18,260 bases of DNA from a virus. Taxonomy: Duplodnaviria > Heunggongvirae > Uroviricota > Caudoviricetes. Of the stretch, positions 2,632 to 18,260 are shown piece after piece (positions within the stretch are counted from its first letter, which is position 1; the number at the start of each line of letters is the position of its first letter). The position numbers were made by a program, and so were the translations under genes. Below the pieces are notes generated by a model. It made no database searches. It was not told the DNA's origin and saw only the letters and a program-made list of their open reading frames with translations. The stretch spans positions 1 to 18,260 of IMG/VR virus record IMGVR_UViG_3300039366_000282. One strand, given 5' to 3'.

Positions 2632-2649
2632 ATTTTATAACCCAGATAC

Positions 2650-2676
2650 GGGCGCCAGAAATGGCGCCTTTTTTAT
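2650..2676 (+). terminator. Rho-independent terminator after J
   Basis: GGCGCCA-GAAA-TGGCGCC perfect 7-bp GC-rich stem followed by TTTTTTATT, starting 19 nt after the J stop. Confidence 0.55.
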
Positions 2677-2698
2677 TGCAGAAAAGCGAGAGGTAATT

Positions 2699-3298: not shown

Positions 3299-3325
3299 TT
3301 AGCCAGGTAACACAGTGTTATGACA

Positions 3326-3351
3326 GCCCGCCGGTTCAGGCGGGCTTTTTT
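3326..3351 (+). terminator. Rho-independent terminator after lom
   Basis: GCCCGCC-GGTTCA-GGCGGGC stem-loop followed by TTTTTT. Confidence 0.55.
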
Positions 3352-3362
3352 GTGGAGTGGAT

Positions 3363-5738
3363 ATGGCAGCAGTAAAAATCTCAGGTGTGCTGAAAGATGG
3401 TGCGGGAAAACCAATACAGAACTGCACTATTCAACTGAAGGCAAAGCGTAACAGCACCACGGTACTGGTGAACACGGTGGCCTCTGAAAATCCGGATGAA
3501 GCCGGGCGTTACAGCATGGATGTTGAGTATGGCCAGTACAGCGTTATCCTGCTTGTTGAAGGTTTTCCGCCTTCACATGCCGGAACCATTACCGTCTATG
3601 AAGGTTCCAGACCAGGTACGCTGAATGATTTTCTCGGTGCCATGACGGAAGATGATGTCATGCCGGAGGCATTGCGTCGTTTTGAGGAAATGGTGGAAGA
3701 AGCGGCACGCAACGCCGAAGCCGCCTCTCAGAGCGCAGCGGCGGCAAAGAAATCCGAAACTGCAGCGGCATCATCGAAGAACGCGGCGAAAACCTCAGAA
3801 ACGAATGCAGCTAATAGTGCACAGGCGGCAGCGACCTCACAGACTGCATCAGAAAACTCCGCGACAGCAGCCAAAAAATCAGAAACCAACGCGAAAAATA
3901 GCGAGACAGCCGCAAAGACGAGCGAAACCAACGCAAAGTCCAGCCAGACGGCAGCGAAAACCAGCGAAACGAATGCCAAAGCCAGTGAAACTGCGGCGAA
4001 AAGCAGTCAGGATGCAGCAGCCGAAAGCGAGAGCGCGGCAGCCGGTTCTGCGACTTCAGCTGCTGGATCAGCAACTGCTGCGGCTAACAGTCAGAAAGCA
4101 GCGAAGACGAGTGAAACTAACGCAAAGTCCAGCCAGACGGCAGCGAAGACCAGCGAAACGAATGCCAAAGCCAGCGAAACTGCGGCGAAAAGCAGTCAGG
4201 ATGCAGCAGCCGAAAGCGAGAGTGCTGCAGCTGGTTCTGCAAGCGCGGCTGCTGCTTCTGCCACTGCATCAGCTAACAGTCAAAAAGCAGCAAAAACCAG
4301 TGAAACCAACGCAAAGGTGAGCGAAACAGCGGCTGCGAACTCAGCGAAAGCATCGGCAGCAAGCCAGACGGCAGCTAAAGCAAGCGAAGATGCAGCCAGA
4401 GAGTACGCAAGCCAGGCTGCGGAGCCGTATAAATATGTCTTACAGCCGCTGCCTGATGTGTGGATACCATTTAACGATTCGCTGGATATGATTACGGGCT
4501 TTTCGCCGTCATATAAAAAGATTGTTATTGGTGATGATGAAATAACGATGCCTGGCGACAAGGTTGTTAAGTTTAAACGCGCATCGAAAGCAACCTATAT
4601 TAATAAATCTGGTGTGCTGACAGAGGCTGCCATTGACGAGCCACGGTTTGAACGTGATGGCCTGCTTATTGAGGGGCAAAGAACGAACTACATGCTCAAT
4701 TCGGAAAGCCCTGCCAGTTGGGGGCGATCGTCAAATATGGATGTTCCCGAAACCGGGACGGATAGTTTTGGTTTTACCTATGGAAAGTTTGTCTGTAACG
4801 ATTCTCTGATTGGGCAAACCTCAGCCATTAATATGGCATCAATTGCTGCAACAAAGTCAGTTGATGTCTCAGGCGATAATAAATACGTGACAACCTCATG
4901 TCGTTTTAAAACAGAACTGCAGGTAAGGTTGCGTATCCGATTTGATAAATATGACGGTAGCGCAACAACTTTTCTTGGTGATGTGTATATTGATACACAA
5001 ACGCTTGAAATTAATATGACAGGCGGCGCTGCCTCAAGGATTACAGCGAGAGTCAGAAAGGACGAAGTTATCGGATGGATTTTTGCAGAGGCAACAATTC
5101 AGGCAATTGATGGGGAGTTAAAAATAGGTTCTCAGATACAGTATTCTCCTAAGCAGGGCGGGGCAACCGTATCTGGTGACTATATTTATCTGGCCACCCC
5201 ACAAGTAGAAAATGGGCCTTGTGTATCATCTTTTATTATATCAGGAACGACGGCGGCGACCCGCGCAAGCGATATAGTCACAGTTCCCATTAAGAATAAT
5301 CTTTATAATCTTCCTTTTACGGTTCTTTGTGAGGTACATAAGAACTGGTATAAAACGCCAAATGCAGCACCGCGTGTTTTTGATACCGGCGGTCATCAAA
5401 CCGGAGCGGCTATTATTCTTGGCTTCGGTTCTTCAGCAGATTACGACGGATTTCCTTATTGCGATATTGGTGGGTCTAACAGACGGATAAACGAAAATGC
5501 ATCACTTGAAAAAATGGTTATGGGGATGCGTGTAAAGTCTGATCAGTCTACATGCGCAGTAAGTAACGGGCGTATATCCAGCGAAACAAAAACCACATGG
5601 TCCTGTATTCAGAACACCGCAATTATCCGTATTGGAGGCCAGACTACAGCCGGGTTACGTCATTTATTTGGTCATGTAAGGAATTTCAGAATATGGCACA
5701 AGGCATTGACTGATGCTCAGGTGGGGGAGTCAATCTAA
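3363..5738 (+). CDS. stf: Side tail fibre protein: lambda Stf-like N-terminus, heptad-repeat shaft, divergent AT-rich C-terminal domain
   Basis: N-terminus MAAVKISGVLKDGAGKPIQNCTIQLKAKRNSTTV... matches lambda Stf from memory; ATG at 3363 preferred over track GTG 3357 (GGAG 5 nt upstream); long Ala/Ser/Thr/Lys heptad region (KTSETNA/KSSQTAA...); C-terminal ~430 aa encoded by visibly more AT-rich DNA, ending in a LamG-like motif (..VRNFRIWHKALTDAQV..). Confidence 0.8.
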   Translation: MAAVKISGVLKDGAGKPIQNCTIQLKAKRNSTTVLVNTVASENPDEAGRYSMDVEYGQYSVILLVEGFPPSHAGTITVYEGSRPGTLNDFLGAMTEDDVMPEALRRFEEMVEEAARNAEAASQSAAAAKKSETAAASSKNAAKTSETNAANSAQAAATSQTASENSATAAKKSETNAKNSETAAKTSETNAKSSQTAAKTSETNAKASETAAKSSQDAAAESESAAAGSATSAAGSATAAANSQKAAKTSETNAKSSQTAAKTSETNAKASETAAKSSQDAAAESESAAAGSASAAAASATASANSQKAAKTSETNAKVSETAAANSAKASAASQTAAKASEDAAREYASQAAEPYKYVLQPLPDVWIPFNDSLDMITGFSPSYKKIVIGDDEITMPGDKVVKFKRASKATYINKSGVLTEAAIDEPRFERDGLLIEGQRTNYMLNSESPASWGRSSNMDVPETGTDSFGFTYGKFVCNDSLIGQTSAINMASIAATKSVDVSGDNKYVTTSCRFKTELQVRLRIRFDKYDGSATTFLGDVYIDTQTLEINMTGGAASRITARVRKDEVIGWIFAEATIQAIDGELKIGSQIQYSPKQGGATVSGDYIYLATPQVENGPCVSSFIISGTTAATRASDIVTVPIKNNLYNLPFTVLCEVHKNWYKTPNAAPRVFDTGGHQTGAAIILGFGSSADYDGFPYCDIGGSNRRINENASLEKMVMGMRVKSDQSTCAVSNGRISSETKTTWSCIQNTAIIRIGGQTTAGLRHLFGHVRNFRIWHKALTDAQVGESI
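3906..4283 (+). repeat. 189-bp (63-codon) near-identical in-frame tandem duplication inside the tail-fibre shaft
   Basis: acgcaaagtccagccagacggcagcgaa... occurs at 3931 and again at 4120 (period 189 bp) with only a few substitutions; partial further units flank it. Confidence 0.85.
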
Positions 5739-6019
5739 TGAAAGATTTAACACTCAAATTTCCCGACAGGGCCGACTTTTCGGCCTTTATGGAGAGCATT
5801 GGCTATTATGATGACGAGTTGATGCAGGATGATATTCTTATTGACGTGATAGGTAACGTGTACAAAGAAACCGGAGAACTGACTGAAGATGGCGAACCGG
5901 TATGTGTTAAGGAAGACGGATATTTTGTAAACGTGCGCATCATTAATGATTCGCAAATATCGTCATTATTCGATGAATACGTGGTTGCTGTTGAGCATCA
6001 ACTTCGTGGCTGGATGTGA
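5738..6019 (+). CDS. Hypothetical 93-aa acidic protein, translationally coupled to the tail-fibre gene
   Basis: ATG overlaps the stf stop (TAATG at 5736-5740); GGGGGAG 8 nt upstream; no family recognised. Confidence 0.5.
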   Translation: MKDLTLKFPDRADFSAFMESIGYYDDELMQDDILIDVIGNVYKETGELTEDGEPVCVKEDGYFVNVRIINDSQISSLFDEYVVAVEHQLRGWM

Positions 6020-6028
6020 GGAAGAAAA

Positions 6029-7069
6029 ATGGCTACATCGACAGTAATTCCTGATGACATCAAAACGCTAAAATCCGACGTTAGCAAATTAAAAAACGAT
6101 CAAGGAAGCTACGCAACAAAATTATATGTAGACAGCAAAGATGAAATCGTTGGTGACTGGTCTGCTTCATGGTATCAGCAGGTATTGCCAACTAGCGGAG
6201 CTATATTTGGGAGAAAACTCCGCTCAACTCACAGGACGGCAGGTGTTGAGGATGCGTATTGCGAACTATACCTCAAAAAATGGATAGACAGTCCAGGTAA
6301 CGCAATGGCGCGCCTTAACCTGAACGATAACGGGACAAACATTTGCTGGGACTTTACCAACCTTTATGGCGGTACGATGATTTTTCCCGGTGACAGCGGA
6401 TACCTCAAAATGGGTAACTGCCTTATGTCATACAGCAAGCGTGGAAGTAACGCGCTTATTAAATTTGATTACACCGACACATTACAGATCAAATATGCCA
6501 ATCATGGGTCAACCATGACATTAAACACACAGGGAACCGCTTATGCTGGTGTTACTGCTCAATTGTGGGGCAACACCAGCCGTCCTGTTGTTTATGAAGT
6601 CGGTGTTGATGGTGGCGCTTATATGTTCTATGCGCAGAAAAATACCGATAACACCTATATGTTAAGCGTTAATGGTGCATGTCATGCCACCGCATTTAAC
6701 CAGCATTCCGACCGGGATCTGAAAGACAACATTCAGGTGATCGATAATGCAACCGACCGCATCCGTAAAATGAACGGCTATACATACACGCTTAAAGAAA
6801 ACGGTATGCCCTATGCTGGTGTCATTGCACAGGAAGCTCTGGAAGCAATCCCAGAAGTTGTAGGTTCCGCAATGAAATATCAGGACGGTGCAAGCGGATC
6901 GGAAGGTGAAGAAGGTGAACGTTATTACACAGTAGATTATTCTGGTGTTACTGGCTTGCTTGTTCAGGTAGCCAGAGAGTCAGACGACAGAATAACAGCA
7001 CTGGAAGAAGAAAACGCAGAATTAAGACAAAGATTATCTGCAATTGAGGCGGCGCTTGCGTCTAAATAA
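6029..7069 (+). CDS. Tail fibre/tailspike-like protein with C-terminal intramolecular chaperone (peptidase S74-type) domain
   Basis: RBS GAGGAAG before ATG; C-terminal region contains ..NQHSDRDLKDNIQVIDNATDRIRKMNGYTYTLKENG..YAGVIAQEALEAIPEVV.. followed by a coiled-coil tail (ALEEENAELRQRLSAIEAA), matching the SD-x-R-LK-x-NI self-cleaving chaperone signature of phage fibres as recalled. Confidence 0.65.
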   Translation: MATSTVIPDDIKTLKSDVSKLKNDQGSYATKLYVDSKDEIVGDWSASWYQQVLPTSGAIFGRKLRSTHRTAGVEDAYCELYLKKWIDSPGNAMARLNLNDNGTNICWDFTNLYGGTMIFPGDSGYLKMGNCLMSYSKRGSNALIKFDYTDTLQIKYANHGSTMTLNTQGTAYAGVTAQLWGNTSRPVVYEVGVDGGAYMFYAQKNTDNTYMLSVNGACHATAFNQHSDRDLKDNIQVIDNATDRIRKMNGYTYTLKENGMPYAGVIAQEALEAIPEVVGSAMKYQDGASGSEGEEGERYYTVDYSGVTGLLVQVARESDDRITALEEENAELRQRLSAIEAALASK

Positions 7070-7075
7070 TATTAA

Positions 7076-7098
7076 GGGGCCGAGCGCCCCGTTTTATT
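7076..7098 (+). terminator. Rho-independent terminator after the fibre module
   Basis: GGGGC-CGAGC-GCCCC hairpin followed by GTTTTATT, 7 nt after the stop at 7069. Confidence 0.55.
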
Positions 7099-7111
7099 GG
7101 GTAGGATGAAA

Positions 7112-7399
7112 ATGGATATAACACCTTTTCTTCATGCGCTTTGTGCTGTGGCTGCGCAGGTACTGGTTGGTTTTTTTACCGGAAACTGGGCTTACGGGGC
7201 GATAGCCGGTTGTACATTCTTCATTGCGCGGGAACACACCCAGGCAGAATATCGCTGGATTGAAATGTTCGGGCATGGCAAGCGGATTAACATGCCGTGG
7301 TGGGGCGGTTTTGATCCACGTGCATGGGATGTGGCAAGCCTGATGGATTTTGCTGTGCCGGTGGTGGCGTGTCTGCTGATCTGGATGTTGATCCGTTAA
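7112..7399 (+). CDS. Small hydrophobic (predicted membrane) protein, ~96 aa, unknown function
   Basis: ORF with two strongly hydrophobic stretches (ALCAVAAQVLVGFFTGNWAYGAIAGCTFFIA and FAVPVVACLLIWMLI); AGGA 5 nt upstream of ATG 7112 (track start 7097 is TTG; 7106 is an alternative ATG). Confidence 0.45.
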   Translation: MDITPFLHALCAVAAQVLVGFFTGNWAYGAIAGCTFFIAREHTQAEYRWIEMFGHGKRINMPWWGGFDPRAWDVASLMDFAVPVVACLLIWMLIR

Positions 7400-7747
7400 A
7401 TATAAAAAGTAAAAAGCCGCAGTAACTTGTCATGATAGGATACTGCGGCTGGCTGGTTAACTTTCGATAGTGCGAGTATTGAATGATTTCCAGCCGTTAC
7501 CGATTTTATATAACTGCAGTGGAATTATTCAACACACAGGCAAAACGGAATAAGCTGAGAAAAAAGCGTGCTTACCCAATCTGGGGTAAATCACGTCTGA
7601 ATGACACCTGAAAACAGGTGGTGGCCTCAAGAAGGCTTGGAATATTCTTCTTTAATGTTATGTAATTTATTGATTTTTCGTGTACGATTTTAAGACATTT
7701 ATTCCAAGAAAAATTTTTAACTCTTTGATTTTTCGACTCTGTATCAT

Positions 7748-7809
7748 CGGTCTCGAAAACCGGAGTAGGGGCAACTCTACCGGGGGTTCAAATCCCCCTC
7801 TCTCCGCCA
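7748..7809 (+). tRNA. Partial tRNA-Ser(CGA) (serU-type), 3' 62 nt only, without 5' acceptor/D-arm; att-core duplicate at the prophage boundary
   Basis: Anticodon stem-loop CCGGT-CTCGAAA-ACCGG (anticodon CGA), long variable arm, T-arm GGGGG-TTCAAAT-CCCCC, 3' acceptor strand TCTCTCC + G + CCA; no matching 5' strand (GGAGAGA...) upstream; matches E. coli serU 3' portion from memory. Confidence 0.75.
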
Positions 7810-8087
7810 ATCATTCAACAAAATCAATCACTTACAAAGCATTTTTGATTTTGTCGTGCATAAATCCCTGCATTAAAATTCCTTTCTCTCGCTCAATTTT
7901 TCTTACTACTGATGCTGTTTTTTACCATTTTGCCGCGCGTCGGGCATCCACTTTTATGCTCTCGAGTTCACACTCTTAACAACAACTTAGCCATTCCCCC
8001 GTCTCTGATGACAAAACAGTTGAACTTCAATTGTTCCAAACGGATCCTGTGAAGATATATCAAAGGAAATGGATTGTTGGAGGATGG

Positions 8088-8924
8088 ATGAAAAGAAGTG
8101 AAATCAGGAAAGCACTGGAAGCATGGTTTGATGTGGAACGCTATGAGGCGATAGAGAAACTCACCTTACAGCAGTTTTATGTTGAGGTTGAGCGGCGCAT
8201 CTTGGCTTACAGAATGTTGTTGAGCCGGAACACCATACCTACCTTTAACCGATTAATGCTGGATGATTACCGCAACAAGATCCTCAGCGGTGAAATCTTT
8301 TTCAGTGGTGATACTGAGACCATTGGATATGAGCTTGCCAGAACCTATGCGGTAAACCCTACGACAAGAAGCCACGCGCAATTTTATGCGAAAACTCTGT
8401 CATTAACCGAAGCCACGCCTGAACTCTCTGGGTTAAGCCAGTCTGAATTTCTGTCCGAATATCTGAAAGAGACATCCCTTAATAATCTTTCACGCATTAC
8501 TGTCGATATTCATCTGGAAGAAGCATCAACCGAAGAGATCATTGAACATCTGAAAGTGCTGATCCCTCAATGGAAGAGGCAGCTTAAGATGACGTCTCCA
8601 GCTCCAAGAGAGTATCGTTTCGGCAAAAGCACGTTCAGAAAAATTATTGAATATCGTCTTATCCCGATGATGGACCTGATCTTCTGGGGAGAAGATAACG
8701 GCATTAAAATCCCGCTTTCACTGATTTCCTCGTTGCTTCATGAGGACAGCGACAACGATCGTGATGAAGGAATGCTCAAGGCAACAGATTACCCGTTAGC
8801 AATGGCTTTTCTGACGGATGCGAGCTATCTGAAATCGCTTGAAGATTACATGATGGAAAACAACCACTTGAAAGACTCCCCTGTTGAAAAGCATGTAGAA
8901 GACGACAGGAATAAGAAAAAATAA
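8088..8924 (+). CDS. Hypothetical protein (278 aa from ATG 8088)
   Basis: Long ORF; track start 8031 is TTG; GGAGGA lies just upstream of ATG 8088; no family recognised. Confidence 0.5.
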   Translation: MKRSEIRKALEAWFDVERYEAIEKLTLQQFYVEVERRILAYRMLLSRNTIPTFNRLMLDDYRNKILSGEIFFSGDTETIGYELARTYAVNPTTRSHAQFYAKTLSLTEATPELSGLSQSEFLSEYLKETSLNNLSRITVDIHLEEASTEEIIEHLKVLIPQWKRQLKMTSPAPREYRFGKSTFRKIIEYRLIPMMDLIFWGEDNGIKIPLSLISSLLHEDSDNDRDEGMLKATDYPLAMAFLTDASYLKSLEDYMMENNHLKDSPVEKHVEDDRNKKK

Positions 8925-9140
8925 GCCAAGTAAAAAGGGTTACGTTCGCTCCGTGCGAACGTGATCGCATCCAGTGTCAACCGTTATCTTTCCATCCGTG
9001 CCCCTTCGAATTTTTCAAAAAAAACTTATTTGAACGTCCCTAAATTGTCATAAGCAAAATCGCTATCATTGTTCACGTCGAAACAACATAGAGAAAAGCG
9101 AAATCTCATAGAGATTACTTACAATAATAGAGGACAGACA

Positions 9141-9359
9141 ATGAAAGAAAATAATGAAACCAGCGTAAAACGATTTATCCGCGTTCCTGATGTTTTAAAT
9201 CGAGTGGGATTTAGTCGCACGACTTTATATGAACGTATTAAGGAAGGAAACTTTCCAGACAGAGTAAAAATAGGGCCAAGATGTGTCGCCTTTGTCGAAA
9301 GTGAGATTGATGAATGGATTGAAGCGGCTATTCGAAACTCACGCCAGAACGCAGCATAA
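9141..9359 (+). CDS. AlpA-family phage/island transcriptional regulator (small HTH)
   Basis: 72-aa product ..FIRVPDVLNRVGFSRTTLYERIKEGNFPDRVKIGPRCVAFVESEIDEWIE.. matches the AlpA/prophage CP4-57 regulator pattern from memory; RBS AGAGGA before ATG 9141. Confidence 0.7.
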   Translation: MKENNETSVKRFIRVPDVLNRVGFSRTTLYERIKEGNFPDRVKIGPRCVAFVESEIDEWIEAAIRNSRQNAA

Positions 9360-9440
9360 AAACAGAAACAAGATCTCGTGTCGAACAGATATCTGTTCGC
9401 TCAGGGCATCTTATTATCCTAAACAATAATGGAGAAAAAT

Positions 9441-9731
9441 ATGAAGATAGAGCTTATTACGACAAAACAGTTTATTGAACAAGCCGAATGTTATTTCAGG
9501 CGCTATATGGACGGATTGCGGAGGAATGCACCAGATGATTTTTATTATTTTCTCAACAATAAATACAATATGAATGACATTATGGAAAGTATCATTAAAA
9601 AAACGAGATATCATTTTTACGATGACACAGAAGAAAACCAAAGGAATCGGATTTATGGAGAAGTAAGCCACTGTAAGGTAAAACAACACCTTCGTCAGCT
9701 TTGGATTATCTATAAGTGTGTATACCGCTAA
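9441..9731 (+). CDS. Hypothetical small protein (96 aa)
   Basis: ORF with GGAGA 5 nt upstream of ATG 9441 (track start 9429 also possible); AT-rich; no recognised family. Confidence 0.4.
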   Translation: MKIELITTKQFIEQAECYFRRYMDGLRRNAPDDFYYFLNNKYNMNDIMESIIKKTRYHFYDDTEENQRNRIYGEVSHCKVKQHLRQLWIIYKCVYR

Positions 9732-9783
9732 TATTTATACAAATATTTTGCTATTCCAATATTAAACTAAAGAGGAAATAAAA

Positions 9784-10080
9784 ATGAATACATTTAAAAA
9801 TAAAACTACTAAAATCTTTTATGTTGTGTCCTTGCATATCTATGCGGAGCTTTTTAACTCAAAGGATAAAACGACCAGTAATATGATTATAACGCATGTA
9901 ATGGATCATGAGTTTGTTTGTAAGCTAATCGATCTGGCGATGAGAAATGCTGAAAAGCATCTTCTGAAAAAAGCATGGAAAAAGAACGCGGCTGAAAAAC
10001 TATCTGAGGTGGATTTTAAAGAGGTTAGGCAGGCATTAGCCAAAATGCACTACACTGTTCTGGCGGAATCAATATGTTGA
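9784..10080 (+). CDS. Hypothetical small protein (98 aa)
   Basis: ORF preceded by strong RBS AAAGAGGAAATAAAA-ATG; no recognised family. Confidence 0.4.
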   Translation: MNTFKNKTTKIFYVVSLHIYAELFNSKDKTTSNMIITHVMDHEFVCKLIDLAMRNAEKHLLKKAWKKNAAEKLSEVDFKEVRQALAKMHYTVLAESIC

Positions 10081-10152
10081 TATGTTCTGGTGTCTATCTG
10101 CCCCTTCTTGGGGCTGATAACAAATATTATTTTTCTATCCAAGGAGCAAAAA

Positions 10153-10395
10153 ATGACTGATGAATTTCATGTGATGTATATGTATAAAAAAATCCAAGCG
10201 GAAGCCGTAACTACTGACATCAAAACACTTGAACAGCTTTTGAAAAAGTTCAGGAGCGTTGTCAACGAACGTCGTGAAGAATACTATCAGGAGATTGGTG
10301 AGAAAAAAGCGCATAAGTTGAAAATGAAAAGATTACAAAGAATGCTTGAGAAAATGGCGTGTGACCGAGTCTCGCCAGAAGATCTCATTGACTGA
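10153..10395 (+). CDS. Hypothetical small charged/helical protein (80 aa)
   Basis: RBS AAGGAG 6 nt upstream of ATG 10153 (track ORF starts earlier at 10090 without an RBS); product lysine/glutamate-rich. Confidence 0.4.
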   Translation: MTDEFHVMYMYKKIQAEAVTTDIKTLEQLLKKFRSVVNERREEYYQEIGEKKAHKLKMKRLQRMLEKMACDRVSPEDLID

Positions 10396-10443
10396 TAAGT
10401 GTTCTGTATAATAACTTATCTATATAAAAACATGGAGGTGGTT

Positions 10444-10833
10444 ATGGGCTGGGAGCTTCACATAGTAAGAACGGAACATTGGTTCGATAGCGCAAGTGTT
10501 CCAATCAGTAGTGAAGAATGGCTCCAGCTTGTTAATGATGATAAAGAACTATCCATAGATAACAAGAACGGTGATTTTTTCGCCATATGGAGTGGTCAAA
10601 GTGAACTCGATGAACCTTGGCTTGACTGGAGTGATGGAAGAATTTCAACAAAACATCCTGACGAAGCCCTTTACTGTAAAATGTTGCAGATAGCTGAGAA
10701 GCTACATGCTGTAGTCGTTGATGAGGATGATCACAAATATTCGCTACCAAGTGACCTGATGAATCCTTCATGGGCGAATTCATCACTGACTGATAAAAAA
10801 CAAACTTTATGGAAAAGGTTGTTTTCAAAATAG
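10444..10833 (+). CDS. Hypothetical protein (129 aa, Trp/Asp-rich)
   Basis: RBS GGAGGTGG before ATG 10444 (MGWELHIVRTEHW...); track ORF starts at 10399. Confidence 0.45.
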   Translation: MGWELHIVRTEHWFDSASVPISSEEWLQLVNDDKELSIDNKNGDFFAIWSGQSELDEPWLDWSDGRISTKHPDEALYCKMLQIAEKLHAVVVDEDDHKYSLPSDLMNPSWANSSLTDKKQTLWKRLFSK

Positions 10834-11139
10834 TTTTGTCAAGTATTCAGGGAATAGCAATGGCACGCCGAATTGATCTTCATGAAATTGTTAACGCTCT
10901 CAACGGGAGCTTTGTTAGTCGAAACAACGACTTTAGAAGATACGGGGCTATTGGGCAGTTAAAATCATTGGCTATCTGTATTAGCTCAGACTTGATCTGG
11001 TGGTTTTCACTGGTAGCACACTATCAAATCTGACAGTCTGCTATGAGCGAGGAGCGGAAGTTAGTACCTCCGATGCTATAGCGCAGCGTTCTTAATTATG
11101 TAAAAATATTCTACCATTCAAGTAAAGTAAGTGAAAACA

Positions 11140-12057
11140 ATGGAATTTAAACTTGATCTAAAATCCAATGCTTTAGATAGTTTTAATGAAGCCATCAAAA
11201 AATTCCAGCAAGGAGAAAATGGAGATTATAAAGCTTTCAAGTTTGCTATACTACATTTGTCTCATTGTTTTGAGTTGACGTTGAAAATGTATATTCAAAC
11301 ATTAGACGAAAACTTGATTTTTTCAAAATGCTACAGAGCAGTAATAGAGCGTGCCAAAAGTGACAAAGTCAATCTTATTGAAGCTTTTTATAAAATGGAG
11401 GCTGAAGAATTCGACTTTGAAGAACTTATTAAAGGACATAAAAATCCTCATACTATTACTTTGGATCAAGCAATATCGATAGCTACACATGAAAAGTGTA
11501 GCATAACCTCAGTGGACTTAGTTGATAAAGAGTTACTAGATGATATCGCTTGGATGAAAGATCTTAGAAATTCAATTGAGCATTACGAATTCTCGTTTAC
11601 TATTAAATATGTTCGTCTGGCAATGGGGCGTTTGGTCAGAGGGTTGGCTGAGTTCTCTGATATATTTGGTTTATACGATCTAGATAAAGAAGTTTCTAAG
11701 GAAATATCTAATTCCTATAATATACTTTCTGACGAATATGAGCATAATGTTCATGAAGGTTATCTTGATGTAGCTGATGCTAGAAAAGCAGCATTTCTTG
11801 GGGTTAGACCAAAGTTTTTTGAGTTAGTTAATTGGAAAGAATATATCTGCGATTACTGTGGTCATGAGACAATGATTCAAAATAACGATTCTACTTCAGG
11901 ATATCGTTGTACGTATTGCGGTGCCGAAGACTCAGGCTCAATTGAAGTCACATGTGATGTTTGTGGTGCTGAATGGCCTGAAGAGGAAATGAGTTCTTGG
12001 CTTGGGGAGGGGACTAACACTTGTCCTGACTGTAGAGATATTAGCAACAAACCATGA
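11140..12057 (+). CDS. HEPN-like (R-x4-H) domain protein with C-terminal four-CxxC zinc-ribbon region; candidate abortive-infection/RNase effector
   Basis: 305 aa from ATG 11140 (track GTG 11131 alternative); helical N-terminal region ending in ..WMKDLRNSIEHYEF.. (R-N-x3-H at nt 11566-11583); C-terminus carries CDYC, CTYC, CDVC, CPDC pairs; RBS weak. Confidence 0.55.
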   Translation: MEFKLDLKSNALDSFNEAIKKFQQGENGDYKAFKFAILHLSHCFELTLKMYIQTLDENLIFSKCYRAVIERAKSDKVNLIEAFYKMEAEEFDFEELIKGHKNPHTITLDQAISIATHEKCSITSVDLVDKELLDDIAWMKDLRNSIEHYEFSFTIKYVRLAMGRLVRGLAEFSDIFGLYDLDKEVSKEISNSYNILSDEYEHNVHEGYLDVADARKAAFLGVRPKFFELVNWKEYICDYCGHETMIQNNDSTSGYRCTYCGAEDSGSIEVTCDVCGAEWPEEEMSSWLGEGTNTCPDCRDISNKP

Positions 12058-12326
12058 CTAAGATTAATCCTTGATTGAAGATGCATTCTTGTCCGCCTCT
12101 CATGTTTTATAATGTATAATGCTTCTGGCATTATAGCGTGAGAGGCGGAAGATATTGTTAACCGAATTGGCAAGCCTAATTTATAACATTATTGCTAATA
12201 TGGAGGAATAGATTTCTGTTCATCCGCTTACATGGAGTATATACTGTAAACCTTACATCCTTTGAATAAACGGGATGGGAGGCGTCCATCCTGTTTAAGA
12301 TCTCCATCATAAAGATTAAAAATTTC

Positions 12327-12851
12327 TTATTCTTCTGAAGTAAGCATCTTCTCCTGATGGGGGTGATACTTATATGCATAATTAAAGAGGGTCAGATCTA
12401 GTTCAAACGTTTCTCGCATACCATCCATCGTTACGGACGTATTCAGTAATCCACGACGGGCCAGAGATTCTACACCCGGTTCAGGATCATCAAGCCTATT
12501 CATTTGTCCCCATGTCATAACAGAACCACCATGCGTCACAAAGTGCATGACTACTTCTTTTTCTCTTCCAGTCAGAGAATTATAAAGCGTTGCCAGTCGT
12601 TTTTCTGCAACTGCCTCTCCCTTGCGGGTAATAATTCGCAGATATAATCCTCCCGCAATAATCTTTACAACCGGAAAAATAATAACAAAAGAAAACAGAG
12701 TCAGTACATAATCGCGAAGAATAAGATAACAGGTAACTCCTGCGATTCCGGAGACAAATATTGCGATGTTAATGCTGAAGTCTTTCTCCGAATAAACACG
12801 ATCAAACATTTTTTCAAGAAATTCTGTCACGATTTCATTCCTTGTTAACAC
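12327..12851 (-). CDS. Hypothetical membrane protein (two predicted TM helices near N-terminus, soluble C-terminal domain)
   Basis: Minus-strand ORF; hydrophobic segments FSINIAIFVSGIAGVTCYLIL and LTLFSFVIIFPVVKIIAGGLYL; start ambiguous (GTG 12851 or ATG 12809, neither with a clear SD). Confidence 0.45.
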   Translation of the reverse strand: MLTRNEIVTEFLEKMFDRVYSEKDFSINIAIFVSGIAGVTCYLILRDYVLTLFSFVIIFPVVKIIAGGLYLRIITRKGEAVAEKRLATLYNSLTGREKEVVMHFVTHGGSVMTWGQMNRLDDPEPGVESLARRGLLNTSVTMDGMRETFELDLTLFNYAYKYHPHQEKMLTSEE

Positions 12852-13283
12852 TAAAGATGCTCGAGTGGGTATGAATATACCGCAATAGTGCGGGAGGATT
12901 TCATTAGTGTCCCATCAAAATCTGGCTTGAACTGGCTATTGAGTCGCTAATCATTATAAATTTTAGCTGTCAATACTACCATAATAAATAGCAGCATTCT
13001 CAAGAGTTGTGGCGAACGCAACAAAACTCTCCCCAACAACCCGCTTGTAAAGATGCTTTTATACTTCTAACGTCCGCTCTTGGCACGGAGTTGCCTGTCA
13101 AATTAGGTTTAGATCTGTGCGATAGCTGTGTCAGGTCAAATCTGAGCTAATAGAGCTATCGATACCGGCGTCACTTCGATGAGGTTTTCTCTCATAGCCG
13201 AGAGCGACACCCTCTCTTCGCACGTAGGATTTTCTTTGGGAGAGAACAAAAACCGCCAAATTTGGTTGACGGCTTTATTGTGA

Positions 13284-13688
13284 TCAGAGCGCGAAGTCTT
13301 CCAGCGTTTTACCAGCTTCGATAGCAGCAGCGATCGCTTTAGGAGTACGGCCTTGACCTGTCCAAGTCTGCTCATTACCATTTTCATCTGTATATTTGTA
13401 TTTAGCAGGACGAGGAGCACGAGTTGATTTGGCTTTAGGCTGGGATGAACTAACAGCAGCAAGGAGTTCTGCCGGATCAATGCCATCTTCTAACAGTTTC
13501 TGGCGGAAGGCTTCCAGTTTAGCCTGACGTTCTTCTTGTTCTTTACGGGCTGAATTTTCTTCCTCACGGCGATCTTCAACGACAGCAGAGAGCTTTTCCA
13601 GCATCTCTTCCAGAGTTGTCAGATCTGTTTCACGAGCATGTGCGCGAAGTGTACGAATATTGTTCAGTGCCTTGAGAGCTTCACTCAT
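13284..13688 (-). CDS. H-NS family nucleoid-associated protein (island-encoded H-NS/StpA paralog)
   Basis: 134-aa product [28 protein letters not shown].. with C-terminal DNA-binding motif [12 protein letters not shown] and ..[12 protein letters not shown]..; matches E. coli H-NS/StpA from memory. Confidence 0.85.
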
Positions 13689-13844
13689 AGTATGTCATCC
13701 GGTGTTTTAAAATGGGCGATTAATAAAAATAATGCTTACGGTGATGTTGGAAAAATCAAAAAAACAGTCAGTAAATAATATAGTAAACATTATCGTTTAA
13801 GCAATCTAATACATCTCATTTCACACGAATAACATAGGAGTGCT

Positions 13845-14324
13845 TTAAAGAGACATTTTCCTGCGCTTCTGGCTTGATGGCTCGAACTCTGACGAGATGC
13901 GAGATAGCTGGTCAAGACTGTATTCAATTGAACGCTGGAACTCAACAGCGGCTTCTGTGCGTTGTTTTATGACCAAGGCTACTATTTCTTCATCACTCTT
14001 TTCTGAAATAGCCTTACGGTATAACACGCGTTCGTTAAATAAATCGAGATTTCCTGATGATTTGGCTGATGTGTTAGCTTTTGAACTGCTGATAGGATTT
14101 AGCTCATCAATAAAGTATTCAATAAGCGATTCTCTCTTTTTATCCAGCCTGCGAAGTTCGGTATGTGCGGACTTAAATTTCTGAGCTTTTATCAATGGAA
14201 TATCATCAGAACGCAGTTTGCGATATTCATTTCTGTATTCTTCTATCGGAATATGGTTTTTTAGTTCTTTGACTGTATTTACGTATTCGATTAAATCACT
14301 GTTGTCTGTTTTTACTTTTCTCAT
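13845..14324 (-). CDS. Hypothetical protein (159 aa, charged/helical)
   Basis: Minus-strand ORF with GAGG 9 nt upstream of ATG 14324; no recognised family. Confidence 0.45.
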   Translation of the reverse strand: MRKVKTDNSDLIEYVNTVKELKNHIPIEEYRNEYRKLRSDDIPLIKAQKFKSAHTELRRLDKKRESLIEYFIDELNPISSSKANTSAKSSGNLDLFNERVLYRKAISEKSDEEIVALVIKQRTEAAVEFQRSIEYSLDQLSRISSEFEPSSQKRRKMSL

Positions 14325-14600
14325 AAGAAATACCTCGTAGATAAAATAGTTGATATATTTATATTACGAGATATGGTGCAGGTGTCAAATTTATGGGGCT
14401 GGGCGCTATTTTTGTATTTTACTTTTAGCTACTGTTTCTTTTGAGAAGAACCGAGAGTTAAATGTGCCGTTCTTAGTCAGTATCTTAGCGTCCACTAATA
14501 ATTTTAACCGTTCTTCATCGGTTCTCTTAGCCGCTAATTTTTTCACCTTTTTTGTCAGATCTTCAATATCTATTATTTACATCCTTATCTTTTAAGTTGT

Positions 14601-15401
14601 TTAAACAATCTGAGGTGTTTTATACTGTTCAAAAATAAGATTTCCTGAATATGTATAAATTTCTATTTTTCCTACTTTACCATCAGTGCCTTTTATCGAG
14701 AAACGAATTAATCTTTCATTATAATATTTTTCTAACAAGTCTGGTCGTTCAGTAAAATATCTTGATTTTGTTGAGCGATCTTTCAGATAGTCGCAGCTTG
14801 AACAAACCTGCTTTTTGAAATCCTTCTCAGATAAACCACTTTCTTTTATTTTTAAAGAAATAAAAGCCTTTAAAGGTCGTTCATATTCATCTCTTTCTTT
14901 TGCTTTGCGTATTTGTTCTTCTTTCTTGCGCTGTTCTTCAATACGGTAAAGTCTGCCTTGTTCTTCCTGCGCTCGTATTATATCCTCTTGAATCATTTTA
15001 CTGATGATTGAGGCAGGAACAACACTGATACCTTCAGACCACCCCTGATAAGGATTATTGTTTTGTATATTTCGGACTGTAGCAGATATTCTGTCTATAT
15101 CCAGTTCTTTATCAAAGGAAACAATGCGTTGTCTGTTTTCTTTTGATATGAGCTTAGCCGTGTTTACCGGGGATTCCAGACCCTTTAATTTGAATGTAGC
15201 TACGGCACTGTTGCGACTTCTATAATATAATGCTTGTTTCTTATCTCCAATATAACATTCAAGGTAAGAGAAAATCTTAAACTCCTGAATGCCAAATGTT
15301 TCCTCAAGCATGGTCATCTGCTCAGCCAATATATTTAGTATATCACTCTTGGATAGTTTTTCGTGGAGCTTAATCTCAAGCGAACCGGGTAGTTTTTTCA
15401 T
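14601..15401 (-). CDS. Hypothetical protein (266 aa), second gene of minus-strand operon
   Basis: Minus-strand ORF; AAGGA 7 nt upstream of ATG 15401; 27-bp gap to the upstream gene; central lysine/glutamate-rich helical segment; no recognised family. Confidence 0.5.
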   Translation of the reverse strand: MKKLPGSLEIKLHEKLSKSDILNILAEQMTMLEETFGIQEFKIFSYLECYIGDKKQALYYRSRNSAVATFKLKGLESPVNTAKLISKENRQRIVSFDKELDIDRISATVRNIQNNNPYQGWSEGISVVPASIISKMIQEDIIRAQEEQGRLYRIEEQRKKEEQIRKAKERDEYERPLKAFISLKIKESGLSEKDFKKQVCSSCDYLKDRSTKSRYFTERPDLLEKYYNERLIRFSIKGTDGKVGKIEIYTYSGNLIFEQYKTPQIV

Positions 15402-15428
15402 TGTTATTTCCTTGTTGTTGTTATTTTA

Positions 15429-16163
15429 TCAGGATACTTTCTGCATATGAGAGTCGGCGTCAACAGCGTTTCTTCTTGCTTCCTCATTTTCCTTTGTTCT
15501 TTTATATACTTTTCGTGGTTTATCAATATGTATGCTGTTATTTGTATTAGGAACAGCATTATTCTTTTTCTTCTTACTGAAAACAAATGCGTCAGTATAG
15601 ATTTCTTTGGTCTCAGTTTCTAAGGATAGGGTTCTTCTTTCACTTTTTGACATAGCTGAATAACTTTCTGGATACTGTTCTATTTCTGCGCAAAGATTGC
15701 GAGCGTTGCTCAACTGTTCTTTACGTTTCTGATCCAGTTGGTGACTCATTCCTTTAGCGAAAATGTTAGAGTTGATATAGAGATGACCATGATGCTCGAC
15801 GAGTATTCCTTTCTGTCTGAGTTTTTTAAAAATGTTAGACATATTACCGGAAGCGATGTTCAGTGCTTTACACAGCGATGATTGCGAAAGATTGATCAGA
15901 TTTCCAAACTCCATATACTCCAGAATATAGGTTAATACACGGAATTCATTCTTGGATATGTCAAGATCAGAGAAGACACGAAAGTTGGAAGTAAAAGCAA
16001 ATACATAAGGTTGTGAAAACGATATAGCTTTATCTTCCTCAGAAGAAATAACTGTCGTTGATTTTATTTCTTTGTTTTGTAGCAAGCGTCTTGCGATATC
16101 AATCTTTTGTTCTGTAGTTAATGATTCAAATAAGTGTAATAGATCAGCATCTGGTGTATTCAT
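15429..16163 (-). CDS. Winged-helix DNA-binding protein, RepL-like (putative replication initiator or regulator)
   Basis: 244 aa from ATG 16163 (track start 16226 would lie upstream of the predicted promoter); segment ..ISKNEFRVLTYILEYMEFGNLINLSQSSLCKALNIASGNMSNIFKKLRQKGILVEHHGHLYINSNIFAKG.. resembles RepL-type wHTH proteins as recalled; repeated palindromes upstream. Confidence 0.5.
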   Translation of the reverse strand: MNTPDADLLHLFESLTTEQKIDIARRLLQNKEIKSTTVISSEEDKAISFSQPYVFAFTSNFRVFSDLDISKNEFRVLTYILEYMEFGNLINLSQSSLCKALNIASGNMSNIFKKLRQKGILVEHHGHLYINSNIFAKGMSHQLDQKRKEQLSNARNLCAEIEQYPESYSAMSKSERRTLSLETETKEIYTDAFVFSKKKKNNAVPNTNNSIHIDKPRKVYKRTKENEEARRNAVDADSHMQKVS

Positions 16164-16197
16164 ATTATTCTCTCTTATTATTTTTGTTATATATATT

Positions 16198-16226
16198 TTA
16201 ATACTATGCAAAAAAGTGAAAGTCAA
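16198..16226 (-). promoter_or_regulatory. Putative sigma70 promoter for the minus-strand operon (TTGACT-17-TATTAA)
   Basis: On the minus strand, -35 TTGACT (16221-16226) and -10 TATTAA (16198-16203) are separated by 17 nt, about 35 nt upstream of ATG 16163. Confidence 0.4.
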
Positions 16227-16287
16227 TAGTAGAACTATAAATAAAATAGGAAGTATATTCTTATGACAATGTTATATGTTAAAAAAA

Positions 16288-16371
16288 CTATGTTCGAACA
16301 TAGATCTTGCTATGTTCGAACATAGGACGGATCTATGTTTGAACATAGGAGTTTGCTATGTTCGAACATAG
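16288..16371. promoter_or_regulatory. Array of four 16-bp palindromes CTATGTTCGAACATAG (one with a single mismatch) at 22-23-bp spacing; putative operator/iteron array
   Basis: Perfect palindromes at 16288-16303, 16310-16325, 16356-16371 and CTATGTTTGAACATAG at 16333-16348; located 60-150 bp upstream of the predicted promoter of the RepL-like gene. Confidence 0.6.
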
Positions 16372-16627
16372 GAAAAAAAGTTGTGAAGCCGCGATTTTAC
16401 TGGTCCGGGACTATGCTTATAATTAAATAATTAGTAAGAAGTTAAGAGAGTCCAGTTTTACTTTTGCGTTATGTTTTAGTGGTTTTACAGGGGGTATTGT
16501 ATTCCTTAATAACTGCTATCAGCGAAGTGATTGTTTCGAACAATCACGAACCGCTGCTTTTATTGCGAGAGCTTAATTAAGATTTCTTTTGTTTTATTAG
16601 CGTCTACGACGCGATCTTTTTTTGGAT

Positions 16628-16790
16628 AAATCCATCATTAACAGGGGCAAGCCCTGTCCAGCAAAGTGATTGTTGCCAACAATCACGAAGTGCTGCTACT
16701 AAGGATATAGTTTTCCTATGTGTTTAAGAGCAAATGCTATATGTCAGAGGGAATATCATGTTCGCATAGGATCTGAATTCTAACTTGGTG
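16628..16790 (+). repeat. Copy 1 of a ~160-bp non-coding direct repeat module
   Basis: aaatccatcattaacaggggcaagccctgtccagcaaagtgattgttgccaacaatcacgaagtgctgctactaagg... recurs at 17124 at roughly 90% identity (period 496 bp); contains the palindrome GTGATTGTT-GCC-AACAATCAC. Confidence 0.8.
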
Positions 16791-17123
16791 GAGGGAATGA
16801 TCTTTATACTGATCGCTTTGTTGTCCATTGATAAAATATTAATGCATTATAGCTGAACAAGGAAAATAGTTTTATACCAGTATTAGGGGCGTAGCCGTGC
16901 GCCAGCACAATGTATGTATTTTCAAAAAAATAATTGAATGTATCAGGTAAAAATAAATATCAATAAATGTAAGTAAGAGTGTTCTGTAAACTGTTAATAA
17001 ACCGCACAGGAAGTGTGGTAAGGATTTGGGATCTGAAAGATAACACATATAACCATCTTCACGCTTAAAGCTCTTATAACTGATTACAGGCAGTAATTTA
17101 TATGGGAAAAATTATTAATTGAA

Positions 17124-17286
17124 AAATCCATCATTAACAGGGACAAGCCCTGTCCAGCAAAGTGATTGTTGGCAACAATCACGAAGTGCTGCTACTAAAG
17201 ATATAGTTTTCCTATACGTTTAAGAGCAAATGCTATATGTCAGATGGGGAATGCTATGTTTAAAAATAGGATCCGAATTAAAAGTT
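17124..17286 (+). repeat. Copy 2 of the ~160-bp non-coding direct repeat module
   Basis: Near-identical to 16628-16790; palindrome GTGATTGTT-GGC-AACAATCAC at 17162-17182; hairpin CAGGG-ACAAG-CCCTG. Confidence 0.8.
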
Positions 17287-17520
17287 AAAAGGAAAATAGA
17301 TCTGACTATGAGCGAATACATTCGCTTATTAGCTCATAGTAGTAAAATAAAATACAAAATGTCAGTTTTAGGGCGTAGCCGTGCATAAGCACAGAGATAA
17401 AAATCTTTTCAAAAAGAAGTTTAATAATAAGAAGTAAAATCATTAATAAATGAAAATATATTTGATTTTTACACTTGCGATAGAGTATTAAACAGTAATA
17501 AATAAAAAAAGGAAAATATA

Positions 17521-17790
17521 ATGAATAATATCAAAATGATCACACTCTTCCATCCACATGACAAAACACCATTTATGATCTGTATTGTAAACACAGTAGA
17601 AGATACAGAACTTGGATTGAAATTAACTCTTGAAAACGGCAACAGCATTTGTGTCAATAACTATGACCATTATCTGTTATCAGAGTCTGTAAGTCGTTGT
17701 GATAAAGACAGGGTGAAAAATATTTATATCCGTTTGGTTTCAGAACTCACACAGATGAGTGAAGAAACTATAAAATCACAGATGTTATAA
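17521..17790 (+). CDS. Hypothetical small protein (89 aa)
   Basis: ORF with RBS AGGAAAATATA-ATG; possible promoter TTGATT-18-TATTAA at 17462-17491; no recognised family. Confidence 0.4.
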   Translation: MNNIKMITLFHPHDKTPFMICIVNTVEDTELGLKLTLENGNSICVNNYDHYLLSESVSRCDKDRVKNIYIRLVSELTQMSEETIKSQML

Positions 17791-17873
17791 AACATCTATA
17801 AAAGCATAATAAATATTTTTGATATTACGATTAGTTGCATGGTATTAAATAAAAACAATAACAGGAAAATATC

Positions 17874-18260
17874 ATGAGAAAAATAAAAACAAAAATCTAC
17901 TTGCCTACAGCTTTAACAGGAAACATGGATAAACACTATATCCCTGTTTTAGAGGATTTAAGAAAAACGATATACAGCGACAGAATGTTATCAAGGCTTG
18001 CAGATAGCGGCAATATTGTTATCCATAGTTCAGTTGGGTATCCGGTTGCTAAGTATAAAAACACGGGGATTAGCATAGGCATAGAACCATTAAATCCGAT
18101 GATAAGACAAGATCTGACTCTTGGATATATCGTGGTAGTCAGAAACGGAAAAGCATCACAGGAGATTAATGGTTTACTTAACAGGTCATTGCCAAAAGCG
18201 ATAAGCACTTTTAAGGACCATATTAATGAATATGAAGCAGCAAAAAGTAAAATGCGATAA
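17874..18260 (+). CDS. Hypothetical protein (128 aa)
   Basis: ORF with RBS CAGGAAAATATC-ATG (same context as the preceding gene); stop TAA at the window end. Confidence 0.4.
   Translation: MRKIKTKIYLPTALTGNMDKHYIPVLEDLRKTIYSDRMLSRLADSGNIVIHSSVGYPVAKYKNTGISIGIEPLNPMIRQDLTLGYIVVVRNGKASQEINGLLNRSLPKAISTFKDHINEYEAAKSKMR

Follow-up and report, generated by a model that had tools for sequence, protein, structure and literature searches.

A cargo variant of the serU island with an H-NS pair and a conserved dyad array, probably the tRNA-proximal third of a ROD21-related mobilizable element

The serU island was published by Williamson & Free (2005) and by Müller et al. (2010), and in Escherichia coli strain 536 it is a repeat-flanked element of 23 kb and 38% GC (guanine plus cytosine) that encodes the H-NS paralog Hfp (PMC2814080). 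The island also encodes H-NST and is related to ROD21, which has another integrase and another integration site (PMC7074111). Here, we examine an 18,260-nucleotide stretch of a viral record (IMG/VR record IMGVR_UViG_3300039366_000282), hereafter called the window, and particularly its island part, which extends from position 7810 onward. We assign a probability of roughly 0.9 to the reading that positions 7810-18260 are the tRNA-proximal third of a serU island, an integrative mobilizable element that is related to the ROD21-like (EARL) family and has a cargo set absent from the described versions. The initial annotation had described this DNA as an AT-rich island without naming it; it had already been published as the serU island encoding Hfp (H-NSB) and H-NST. 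The island type, its H-NS pair, and its kinship with ROD21 are thus prior knowledge, to which the window copy adds a new variant in cargo that ten complete genomes carry.

The EARL islands (ROD21, IE3, ICEKp258.2; PMC6035254) have much in common with this element. Both have an end module that pairs a putative recombination directionality factor (RDF) with DUF6387, a DUF4756 gene, a SEN1990-type winged helix-turn-helix (wHTH) gene, and low GC. A MobQ/MobA relaxase, TraD, and type-4 pilin/PilV are likewise shared, and for the window island these genes are seen past the window, in an identical copy from another genome. Also common are full-length and truncated H-NS homologs encoded in opposite directions, which are frequent but not universal in EARL, and cargo consisting of TIR, restriction, or other conflict systems. 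The differences concern site and layout. EARL elements insert at Asn-tRNA genes and place a P4-like integrase beside the tRNA and the RDF at the other extremity, whereas the window island occupies tRNA-Ser(CGA) with a 14-bp repeat, its RDF end abuts the tRNA, and its integrase is at the far end. In the identical copy, the gene for this distal tyrosine integrase is intact, and according to earlier work it differs from that of the EARL islands (PMC7074111). Plasmid "stealth" H-NS homologs, such as Sfh of R27/pSf-R27 (PMC7074111), provide another parallel, in which the mobile element is likewise AT-rich and supplies a full-length H-NS paralog that forms heteromers with host H-NS. Unlike those plasmids, the window island is chromosomal and encodes the antagonist H-NST besides the silencer.

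The closest described relatives are the serU islands of strains 536 and CFT073, with which the window island shares the site (the 3′ end of serU, between mtfA and zinT), the 14-bp repeat, the backbone order, and a GC content of about 37-38%. Four differences separate it from the island of 536. A slot that holds a DUF6404 gene in 536 contains hyp129, a predicted HEPN/zinc-ribbon protein gene, and hyp167 in the window. An unrelated 193-aa "RepL" gene without a dyad array stands in 536 where the window has a 244-aa SEN1990-type protein, hyp266, and four dyads. The H-NST protein of 536 has the inactive Val16, whereas that of the window has Ala16. Finally, the 536 island measures 23 kb and carries TcpC, TIR, and macro-domain genes, compared with 36.9 kb and a type VI retron, Septu, and DotA/TraY in the identical full-length copy of the window island.

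The island and its tRNA end

The composition of the DNA sets the island apart. The initial annotation had described an AT-rich tract beside the J/lom region, with a drop in gene density and mostly unrecognizable genes, and had recommended GC-skew and k-mer analyses. All of this is borne out. GC is 0.369 for 7811-18260 and 0.360 for 9401-18260, compared with 0.552 for 1-4500 (J, lom, and the start of the tail-fiber gene) and with 0.491 for the core chromosome, as represented by the 40 kb flanking the identical island copy in NZ_CP031215. In 500-bp windows, island GC is below that of the core (Mann-Whitney p = 5.8e-17), and the tetranucleotide distance from the core is 0.037 for the island, 0.0146 for the prophage part, and at most 0.0155 for 10-kb chunks of the core itself. 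Coding density is 65% in the island part versus about 97% in the prophage part, and the largest gene-free gap spans 1357 bp (16164-17520). All 14 annotated open reading frames (ORFs) are intact, and 8 of these 14 genes lack a Pfam assignment. For hyp96, hyp98, hyp129, hyp167, hyp266, hyp89, and hyp128, comparisons with PADLOC, NCBIfam, Pfam, and PHROGs were uninformative, and an Rfam search at E ≤ 1 over 7400-18260 returned only spurious matches (the tRNA fragment and two microRNA models).

The island was acquired horizontally, as originally suggested. In a megablast search against 5426 complete E. coli genomes, the sequence 7748-18260 is present at 100% identity in 10, and hundreds more genomes have variants that cover 63-73% of the stretch. 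The module formed by hfp and the DUF4756 gene occurs in only 642 of the 5426 genomes, chromosomally in every case, and is therefore accessory DNA. Thus, the region is not conserved core genome of host-typical composition, being accessory in E. coli with a GC of 0.369 versus 0.491.

A full-length copy can be inspected in NZ_CP031215, where the island is located between a complete serU gene (which adjoins mtfA and the yersiniabactin island) and zinT. It is 36,866 bp long with 37.4% GC and has 14-bp repeats at both ends. Past the window, it carries in order a restriction endonuclease gene, a DotA/TraY protein gene, an HTH (helix-turn-helix) and reverse transcriptase pair, a MobQ relaxase gene, TraD, type-4 pilin, a PilV shufflon adhesin gene, an ATP-grasp gene, an integrase pseudogene, an ATPase and HNH pair, and an intact tyrosine integrase gene, after which zinT follows. 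The direct repeat (CCCTCTCTCCGCCA) corresponds to the last 14 nt of the tRNA and recurs about 165 bp past the distal integrase in NZ_CP031215, SCU-124, and 536; a 28-nt tRNA-end sequence sought at the far end of the island was not found, the actual repeat being just 14 bp. No integrase had been visible in the window, and none is present in the RefSeq annotation of the 100% identical sequence. Of the two explanations offered at the time, namely a degenerate element or an integrase beyond 18260, the latter agrees with the identical copy, whereas the former is at odds with the intact backbone ORFs.

The backbone reads DUF6387, AlpA, two small ORFs, hnsT, cargo, hfp, DUF4756, hyp266, the wHTH gene, a long gap, hyp89, and hyp128. 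The features at issue are as follows.

7748-7809, plus strand: displaced 62-nt 3′ portion of serU, tRNA-Ser(CGA), running from the anticodon stem through CCA; the complete serU of NZ_CP031215 has the same 3′ sequence
7796-7809: 14-bp core of the island attachment (att) site, retained inside the tRNA fragment
8088-8924, plus strand: DUF6387 protein, 278 aa (Pfam DUF6387, E = 8.2e-52)
9141-9359, plus strand: AlpA-family small HTH protein, 72 aa, putative RDF (Phage_AlpA, E = 9.4e-19)
9441-9731, plus strand: hyp96, conserved backbone ORF
9784-10080, plus strand: hyp98, conserved backbone ORF
10153-10395, plus strand: H-NST, 80 aa, H-NS N-terminal oligomerization domain only (Histone_HNS_N, E = 3.6e-12)
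10396-13283: variable cargo slot of 2.9 kb between convergent hnsT and hfp; no DNA match to 536
13284-13688, minus strand: Hfp (also H-NSB), an H-NS paralog of full length, 134 aa (Histone_HNS_N, 2.2e-24; Histone_HNS, 1.3e-16)
13845-14324, minus strand: DUF4756 backbone protein, 159 aa (Pfam DUF4756, E = 1.3e-63)
14601-15401, minus strand: hyp266, 27 bp downstream of the wHTH gene; 96.6% identical in SCU-124
15429-16163, minus strand: SEN1990-type wHTH DNA-binding protein, 244 aa, annotated "RepL" (HTH_36, 6e-5; RepL, 2.7e-4)
17521-17790, plus strand: hyp89, conserved backbone ORF, annotated in the identical copy
17874-18260, plus strand: hyp128, conserved backbone ORF; the island runs on past the end of the window

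The H-NST gene, the SEN1990-type wHTH gene, the cargo slot, and the four-dyad array had been overlooked in the initial annotation. Counted from serU, the gene order is the same in strain 536, whose proteins are highly similar to those of the window (DUF6387, 97.5% identity; AlpA, 94.4%; hyp96, 92.7%; hyp98, 94.9%; H-NST, 96.2%; Hfp, 92.5%; DUF4756, 95.0%). The same backbone is found in Salmonella at tRNA-Ser(CGA), adjoining mtfA, and at tRNA-Thr(CGT) and tRNA-Ser(TGA) in Pectobacterium, Mangrovibacter, and relatives. Hyp96 and hyp98, which match only PHROG families of unknown function, are 93-98% identical to their counterparts in 536 and SCU-124 and are also encoded in Salmonella serU-type islands. 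Hyp89 and hyp128 have homologs of 43-59% identity at the same position in other genera, with no family match.

The AlpA gene lies at the tRNA end. It had been annotated as a regulator typical of horizontally acquired elements, and the gene is real, though an excision factor is more likely than a generic regulator by analogy with the EARL islands, because it is located by the att site, is paired with DUF6387, and matches the putative RDF module of EARL. In EARL islands, the putative RDF gene is accompanied by a conserved 843-bp gene of unknown function (PMC6035254), and the DUF6387 gene of the window is the counterpart of that gene. An AlphaFold model of the DUF6387 protein was poor (predicted local distance difference test [pLDDT] score of 64, and <50 over residues 68-147). 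Judging from work on close homologs, the distal integrase and the AlpA-type directionality factor would excise the island as a circle, which might then be moved by conjugation via the MobQ relaxase, TraD, and the pilus genes. Conjugative transfer has been reported for ROD21 (PMC3976249).

The location beside a prophage end and a tRNA site, which was also part of the original description, is marked by the displaced serU fragment at 7748-7809. This segment is the attR of the prophage and also the tRNA-side att of the island. The island begins at 7810, directly after it, and this coordinate therefore remains as first given. ARAGORN finds no complete tRNA in the window, and the fragment came to light only when other genomes were compared. 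GN02100 has, in order, mtfA, a complete serU, a phage integrase gene, a 44-kb lambdoid prophage with J, lom, and stf at its end, the tRNA fragment, and DUF6387. The complete serU of GN02100 carries two compensatory substitutions in the variable-arm stem (GTGGGG...CTCCAC), whereas GTAGGG...CTCTAC is found both in the window fragment and in the serU of strains without the prophage. Therefore, the 3′ half of the present complete tRNA came with the phage, and what the window retains as a fragment is the 3′ end that the chromosome had originally. It follows that the island came first and that the prophage arrived later, between the tRNA and the island. A lambdoid prophage integrated into serU and displaced the original 62 nt, to which the island is still joined, to its right end. 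The island had been described as abutting the prophage, which is true in the window, but only because both elements target serU; most carriers of the island lack the prophage. The junction itself occurs in 21 complete genomes.

Positions 1-7390 of the window, in its prophage part, are 96.5% identical to phage 2G7b. The tail-fiber gene (3357-5738) shows an AT skew of up to 0.58 at 3860-4400, which arises from tandem repeats of 42 bp and 189 bp; in the side tail fiber, these encode a repeat rich in Ala/Ser/Thr/Lys/Glu (AAKTSETNAK...). A second tail-fiber protein, encoded at 6029-7069 immediately ahead of the prophage end, carries a Peptidase_S74 (intramolecular chaperone) domain at its C terminus.

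The H-NS pair and the exchangeable cargo

The presence of an H-NS/StpA-like protein had been noted from the outset, and the gene is real, with both H-NS domains. The Hfp protein of the window corresponds to ECP_1927 of strain 536 and aligns with the solved H-NS and StpA structures, and it scores slightly under the NCBIfam equivalog cutoffs for H-NS/StpA. In published work, Hfp forms heteromers with H-NS and shares H-NS targets (PMC2814080). The DUF4756 gene always adjoins hfp and is also listed in ICEKp258.2. On the opposite strand and convergent with hfp is hnsT, whose product has no C-terminal H-NS domain detectable with Pfam. H-NST antagonizes H-NS, the A16V change abolishes this activity, and the Val16 allele of uropathogenic E. 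coli (UPEC) is non-functional (PMC3897749). Ala16, Leu30, and Arg60, plus Arg63, are the residues needed for anti-silencing and DNA binding (PMC3897749, PMC7074111). Residue 16 is Val in 536 and Ala in nine other homologs from related islands. Because the window protein has Ala16, Leu30, Arg60, and Arg63, it is predicted from its sequence to be an active antagonist.

If the window proteins behave like their homologs, then the AT-rich DNA of the island would be a substrate of silencing by host H-NS, Hfp would enlarge the silencer pool through heteromers with H-NS, and H-NST, which lacks a DNA-binding domain, would co-oligomerize with H-NS and relieve silencing.

The interval between the convergent hnsT and hfp genes is where the islands diverge. 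It comprises 74 bp with no gene in Salmonella islands, a DUF6404 gene in 536, and hyp129 plus a DUF6602 gene in SCU-124. In the window, it holds three genes.

10444-10833, plus strand: hyp129
11140-12057, plus strand: 305-aa protein (hyp305) with a predicted HEPN domain and a C-terminal double zinc ribbon
12327-12830, minus strand: hyp167, specific to the cargo variant of the window

The 305-aa protein has no Pfam or NCBIfam match. It has 74 homologs of conserved length that are scattered over Gammaproteobacteria and metagenomes, and an RNxxEH motif and four CxxC pairs are invariant in the family. The AlphaFold model is confident (pLDDT of 88), and the protein has the Rx4-6H motif and the four-helix up-and-down core that define the HEPN superfamily. 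Residues 1-87 give a partial match to the PADLOC candidate family PDC-S64 (E = 1.6e-16). Homologs are encoded in a P2/186-like prophage, adjacent to its CI repressor gene, at a site near tra genes that is flanked by a transposase and an integrase gene, and in small islets, and none of the contexts examined contains a conserved neighbor, antitoxin, or partner gene. Compared with known HEPN toxins and abortive infection (Abi) proteins (HepN/MNT, AbiV, LsoA/RnlA, Csm6/Csx1), this protein differs in belonging to none of their sequence families, in its fused C-terminal double zinc ribbon, and in having no conserved partner gene. We infer a probable HEPN RNase that stands alone and whose zinc-ribbon tail would be a sensor or bind nucleic acids; it represents mobile cargo, most likely of the defence or toxin (abortive infection) type. 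A two-gene system consisting of hyp305 and hyp167 was considered and rejected, as the two genes converge and none of the four other hyp305 contexts examined includes hyp167. In the hyp167 protein itself, the N-terminal half is hydrophobic, and the C-terminal part contains a stretch (LTGREKEVVMHF...) that we take to resemble LuxR/GerE-type HTH proteins, although no family match stands behind this impression.

Loci of this kind had been expected to carry defence or anti-defence genes. This holds for the island overall, but the defence systems recognized by PADLOC lie outside the window, within which the 305-aa protein is the only candidate. Past position 18260, the identical copy encodes a type VI retron (HTH_VI, 4.8e-26; RT_VI, 2.3e-70) and Septu (PtuA, 9.5e-174; PtuB, 1.8e-102). 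The Septu pair of NZ_CP031215 sits between the integrase pseudogene and the intact integrase gene, which suggests that a small second element was accreted at the distal end of the island. Other serU islands have different defence cargo, namely Drt5 in SCU-124 and TcpC, a second TIR protein, and a macro-domain protein in 536. From these patterns, both the hnsT-hfp interval and the distal region would seem to be cargo exchange sites that gather conflict systems. Our literature search found nothing specific on a serU island with a retron, Septu, or defence function.

Dyads and repeat modules upstream of the wHTH gene

The 244-aa protein annotated as "RepL" reaches 20.9 bits against a cutoff of 20.3 for the RepL family (PF05732; E = 2.7e-4), and it has no NCBIfam match. 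Copies that are 95% identical are named "SEN1990 family wHTH" in RefSeq. The protein is 98% identical to a protein (P0118) whose 90% cluster takes in Salmonella Enteritidis and Salmonella Dublin proteins, and it is therefore a close ortholog of SEN1990. SEN1990 shares <19% identity with RepL proteins (PMC10655114). The wHTH gene heads the minus-strand backbone group (wHTH, hyp266, DUF4756, and hfp). Because hyp266 starts only 27 bp downstream of it, the two genes probably form one operon; they also co-occur in several genera, and hyp266 has no family match. The 193-aa "RepL" of 536 was evaluated as a homolog of the window protein and dismissed, since the two are unrelated at the sequence level and no dyad array precedes the 536 gene. 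A 3.8-kb contig labeled "MAG: Bacillota bacterium" (JAEYGZ010000029.1) contains a 100% identical copy of the wHTH gene with its dyad array and most likely stems from an enterobacterium through mis-binning.

Upstream of the wHTH gene, the 1357-bp gap contains the following elements.

16226-16221, minus strand: −35 element (TTGACT, 17-bp spacer) of the wHTH promoter, conserved in the alignment
16288-16371: four 16-bp dyads of the form CTATGT-N4-ACATAG (CTATGTTCGAACATAG, one variant), 22-23 bp apart; 4 matches versus 0.01 expected
16396-16423, plus strand: divergent promoter-like site TTTACT-16-TATAAT from a promoter scan, inside a 38-nt block that is invariant in 17/17 sequences
16625-16779 and 17121-17279: two copies of a module of about 155 bp, each with a 21-bp palindrome (GTGATTGTT-N3-AACAATCAC) and a degenerate dyad

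The dyads recur at the same offsets from the start of the wHTH gene (−208, −185, −162, and −140) in 15 loci from about 10 genera. Across these loci the arms are invariant, and the centers change symmetrically (TTCGAA, TTTAAA, TGCGCA). Moreover, two metagenomic homologs of the wHTH protein (56-61% protein identity) are preceded by four dyads with the same spacing, though the flanking DNA is unalignable. The pattern is absent from 11 unrelated loci and from the region upstream of the "RepL" gene of strain 536.

The array is located between the wHTH promoter and the divergent promoter-like site. After the latter, an invariant stretch of 24 nt (TAATTAGTAAGAAGTTAAGAGAGT) gives way to about 70 variable nt, a 13-bp hairpin or palindrome (16520-16558), and, in the window, a T-run. 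The segment 16396-16565 may correspond to a small RNA or to an extended 5′ leader. All sequences are predicted to form the hairpin, the T-run is found in only 6 of 16 loci, and the putative transcript has no Rfam match. RNAalifold recovered no structure besides the terminal hairpin, which is invariant and has zero compensatory pairs, and covariation therefore does not discriminate between an RNA element and a DNA site.

It is tempting to speculate that wHTH dimers bind the four dyads and thereby control a divergent promoter pair, with the wHTH-hyp266 operon on one side and a leader or small RNA directed toward hyp89 and hyp128 on the other. We advance this as a tentative model whose chances fall somewhat short of even. 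The text of the SEN1990 paper (PMC10655114) does not contain the terms "palindrom", "binding site", "inverted repeat", or "autoregulat", and no target was found in it. Thus, the dyad array appears to be undescribed so far.

The number of modules of about 155 bp differs among islands, with one module in strain 536. Enterobacter and Citrobacter loci have between 2 and 5 palindrome-2 modules (GTGATTGT-N5-ACAATCAC) upstream of the wHTH gene, and the gap therefore grows and shrinks by whole units of about 150-330 bp. We also considered the gap as a replication origin and set this aside as the leading idea: the repeats are dyads, there is only one DnaA-like box with one mismatch, and ROD21 is without autonomous replication (PMC10655114).

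Alternative readings and implications

The island might instead be a degenerate and immobile remnant, which has lost its integrase and whose genes are decaying under H-NS silencing. Such decay would account for the lack of an integrase in the window, for the coding density of 65% with its 1.36-kb gene-free gap, and for the prophage that cuts the island of the source genome off from an intact tRNA gene, and some relatives (SCU-124) indeed have many frameshifted genes in the distal half. Yet all 14 annotated ORFs of the window are intact, and ten genomes have a 100% identical copy, the one examined having an intact distal integrase, relaxase, and TraD as well as both 14-bp repeats. Nor is the gap a product of decay, as its dyads and promoter block are conserved over about 10 genera, and the 14-bp att core has been kept at 7796-7809. 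We therefore regard a remnant as improbable. The idea that the AT-rich DNA is an accessory region of the prophage itself, of the moron or b-region type, draws on its contiguity with the tail-fiber end and on the fact that many phage accessory regions are AT-rich. It is hardly credible, because similarity to phage genomes ends at about 7390-7512, the tRNA fragment marks the prophage end, and it is refuted by other genomes in which the island occupies serU without any prophage.

Phage satellites typically have int next to alpA, followed by primase and replication genes, within about 10-15 kb that include genes for redirecting helper packaging. A satellite of the phage-inducible chromosomal island (PICI) or P4 type that exploits the adjacent lambdoid prophage, by means of AlpA and a replication protein, is very unlikely here. 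It would explain the AlpA-family gene, the "RepL"-annotated gene with a repeat-rich upstream region as a possible origin, the direct contact with the prophage, and the matches of several backbone proteins to PHROG families. However, most carriers have the island without the prophage, and the identical copy is 36.9 kb long with a MobQ relaxase, TraD, and a type-4 pilus and without primase, capsid-redirecting, or packaging genes. Its integrase and alpA genes lie at opposite ends of the element, and the typical satellite layout is absent. The RepL match is marginal, and the repeats are dyads rather than directly repeated iterons. Furthermore, ROD21 stays at one copy per chromosome and suffers no loss upon deletion of SEN1990 (PMC10655114).

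Several points weigh against parts of our interpretation of the window as one end of a mobilizable serU island with its own regulatory switch. The stretch from the source genome ends at 18260, and it is other genomes, with identical copies, that reveal the integrase, the relaxase, and the far att site. The prophage separates the island of the source genome from the intact tRNA, and any excision there would have to proceed from the fragment alone. Excision, transfer, and the activities of Hfp and H-NST are inferred by analogy with homologs in 536, IE3 of enteropathogenic E. coli, ROD21, and ICEKp258.2, and the role of AlpA as a directionality factor is called "putative" in the EARL papers as well (PMC6035254). 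The candidate link between the dyads and the wHTH protein comes from their adjacency and conservation, and deletion of SEN1990 in ROD21 left copy number and excision unchanged (PMC10655114).

As mobile DNA that supplies both a silencer and an anti-silencer of its own, the serU island with Hfp and H-NST is an established case. The window island pairs Hfp with an H-NST that has Ala16, unlike the inactive Val16 protein of UPEC type strains, and its carriers may therefore truly de-repress H-NS targets. The tandem of prophage and island shows how one tRNA gene gathers elements, and how the original tRNA half can be distinguished from one supplied by a phage. The dyad array offers a concrete and testable candidate operator for SEN1990-type regulators. 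If the proposed control is true, it would constitute a self-contained regulatory switch that is common to serU-type and ROD21-like islands across Enterobacterales. Finally, the swappable sites, which hold a predicted HEPN and zinc-ribbon protein, DUF6602, retron VI, Septu, Drt5, or TcpC/TIR, recast these "pathogenicity islands" as carriers of defence, TcpC included.

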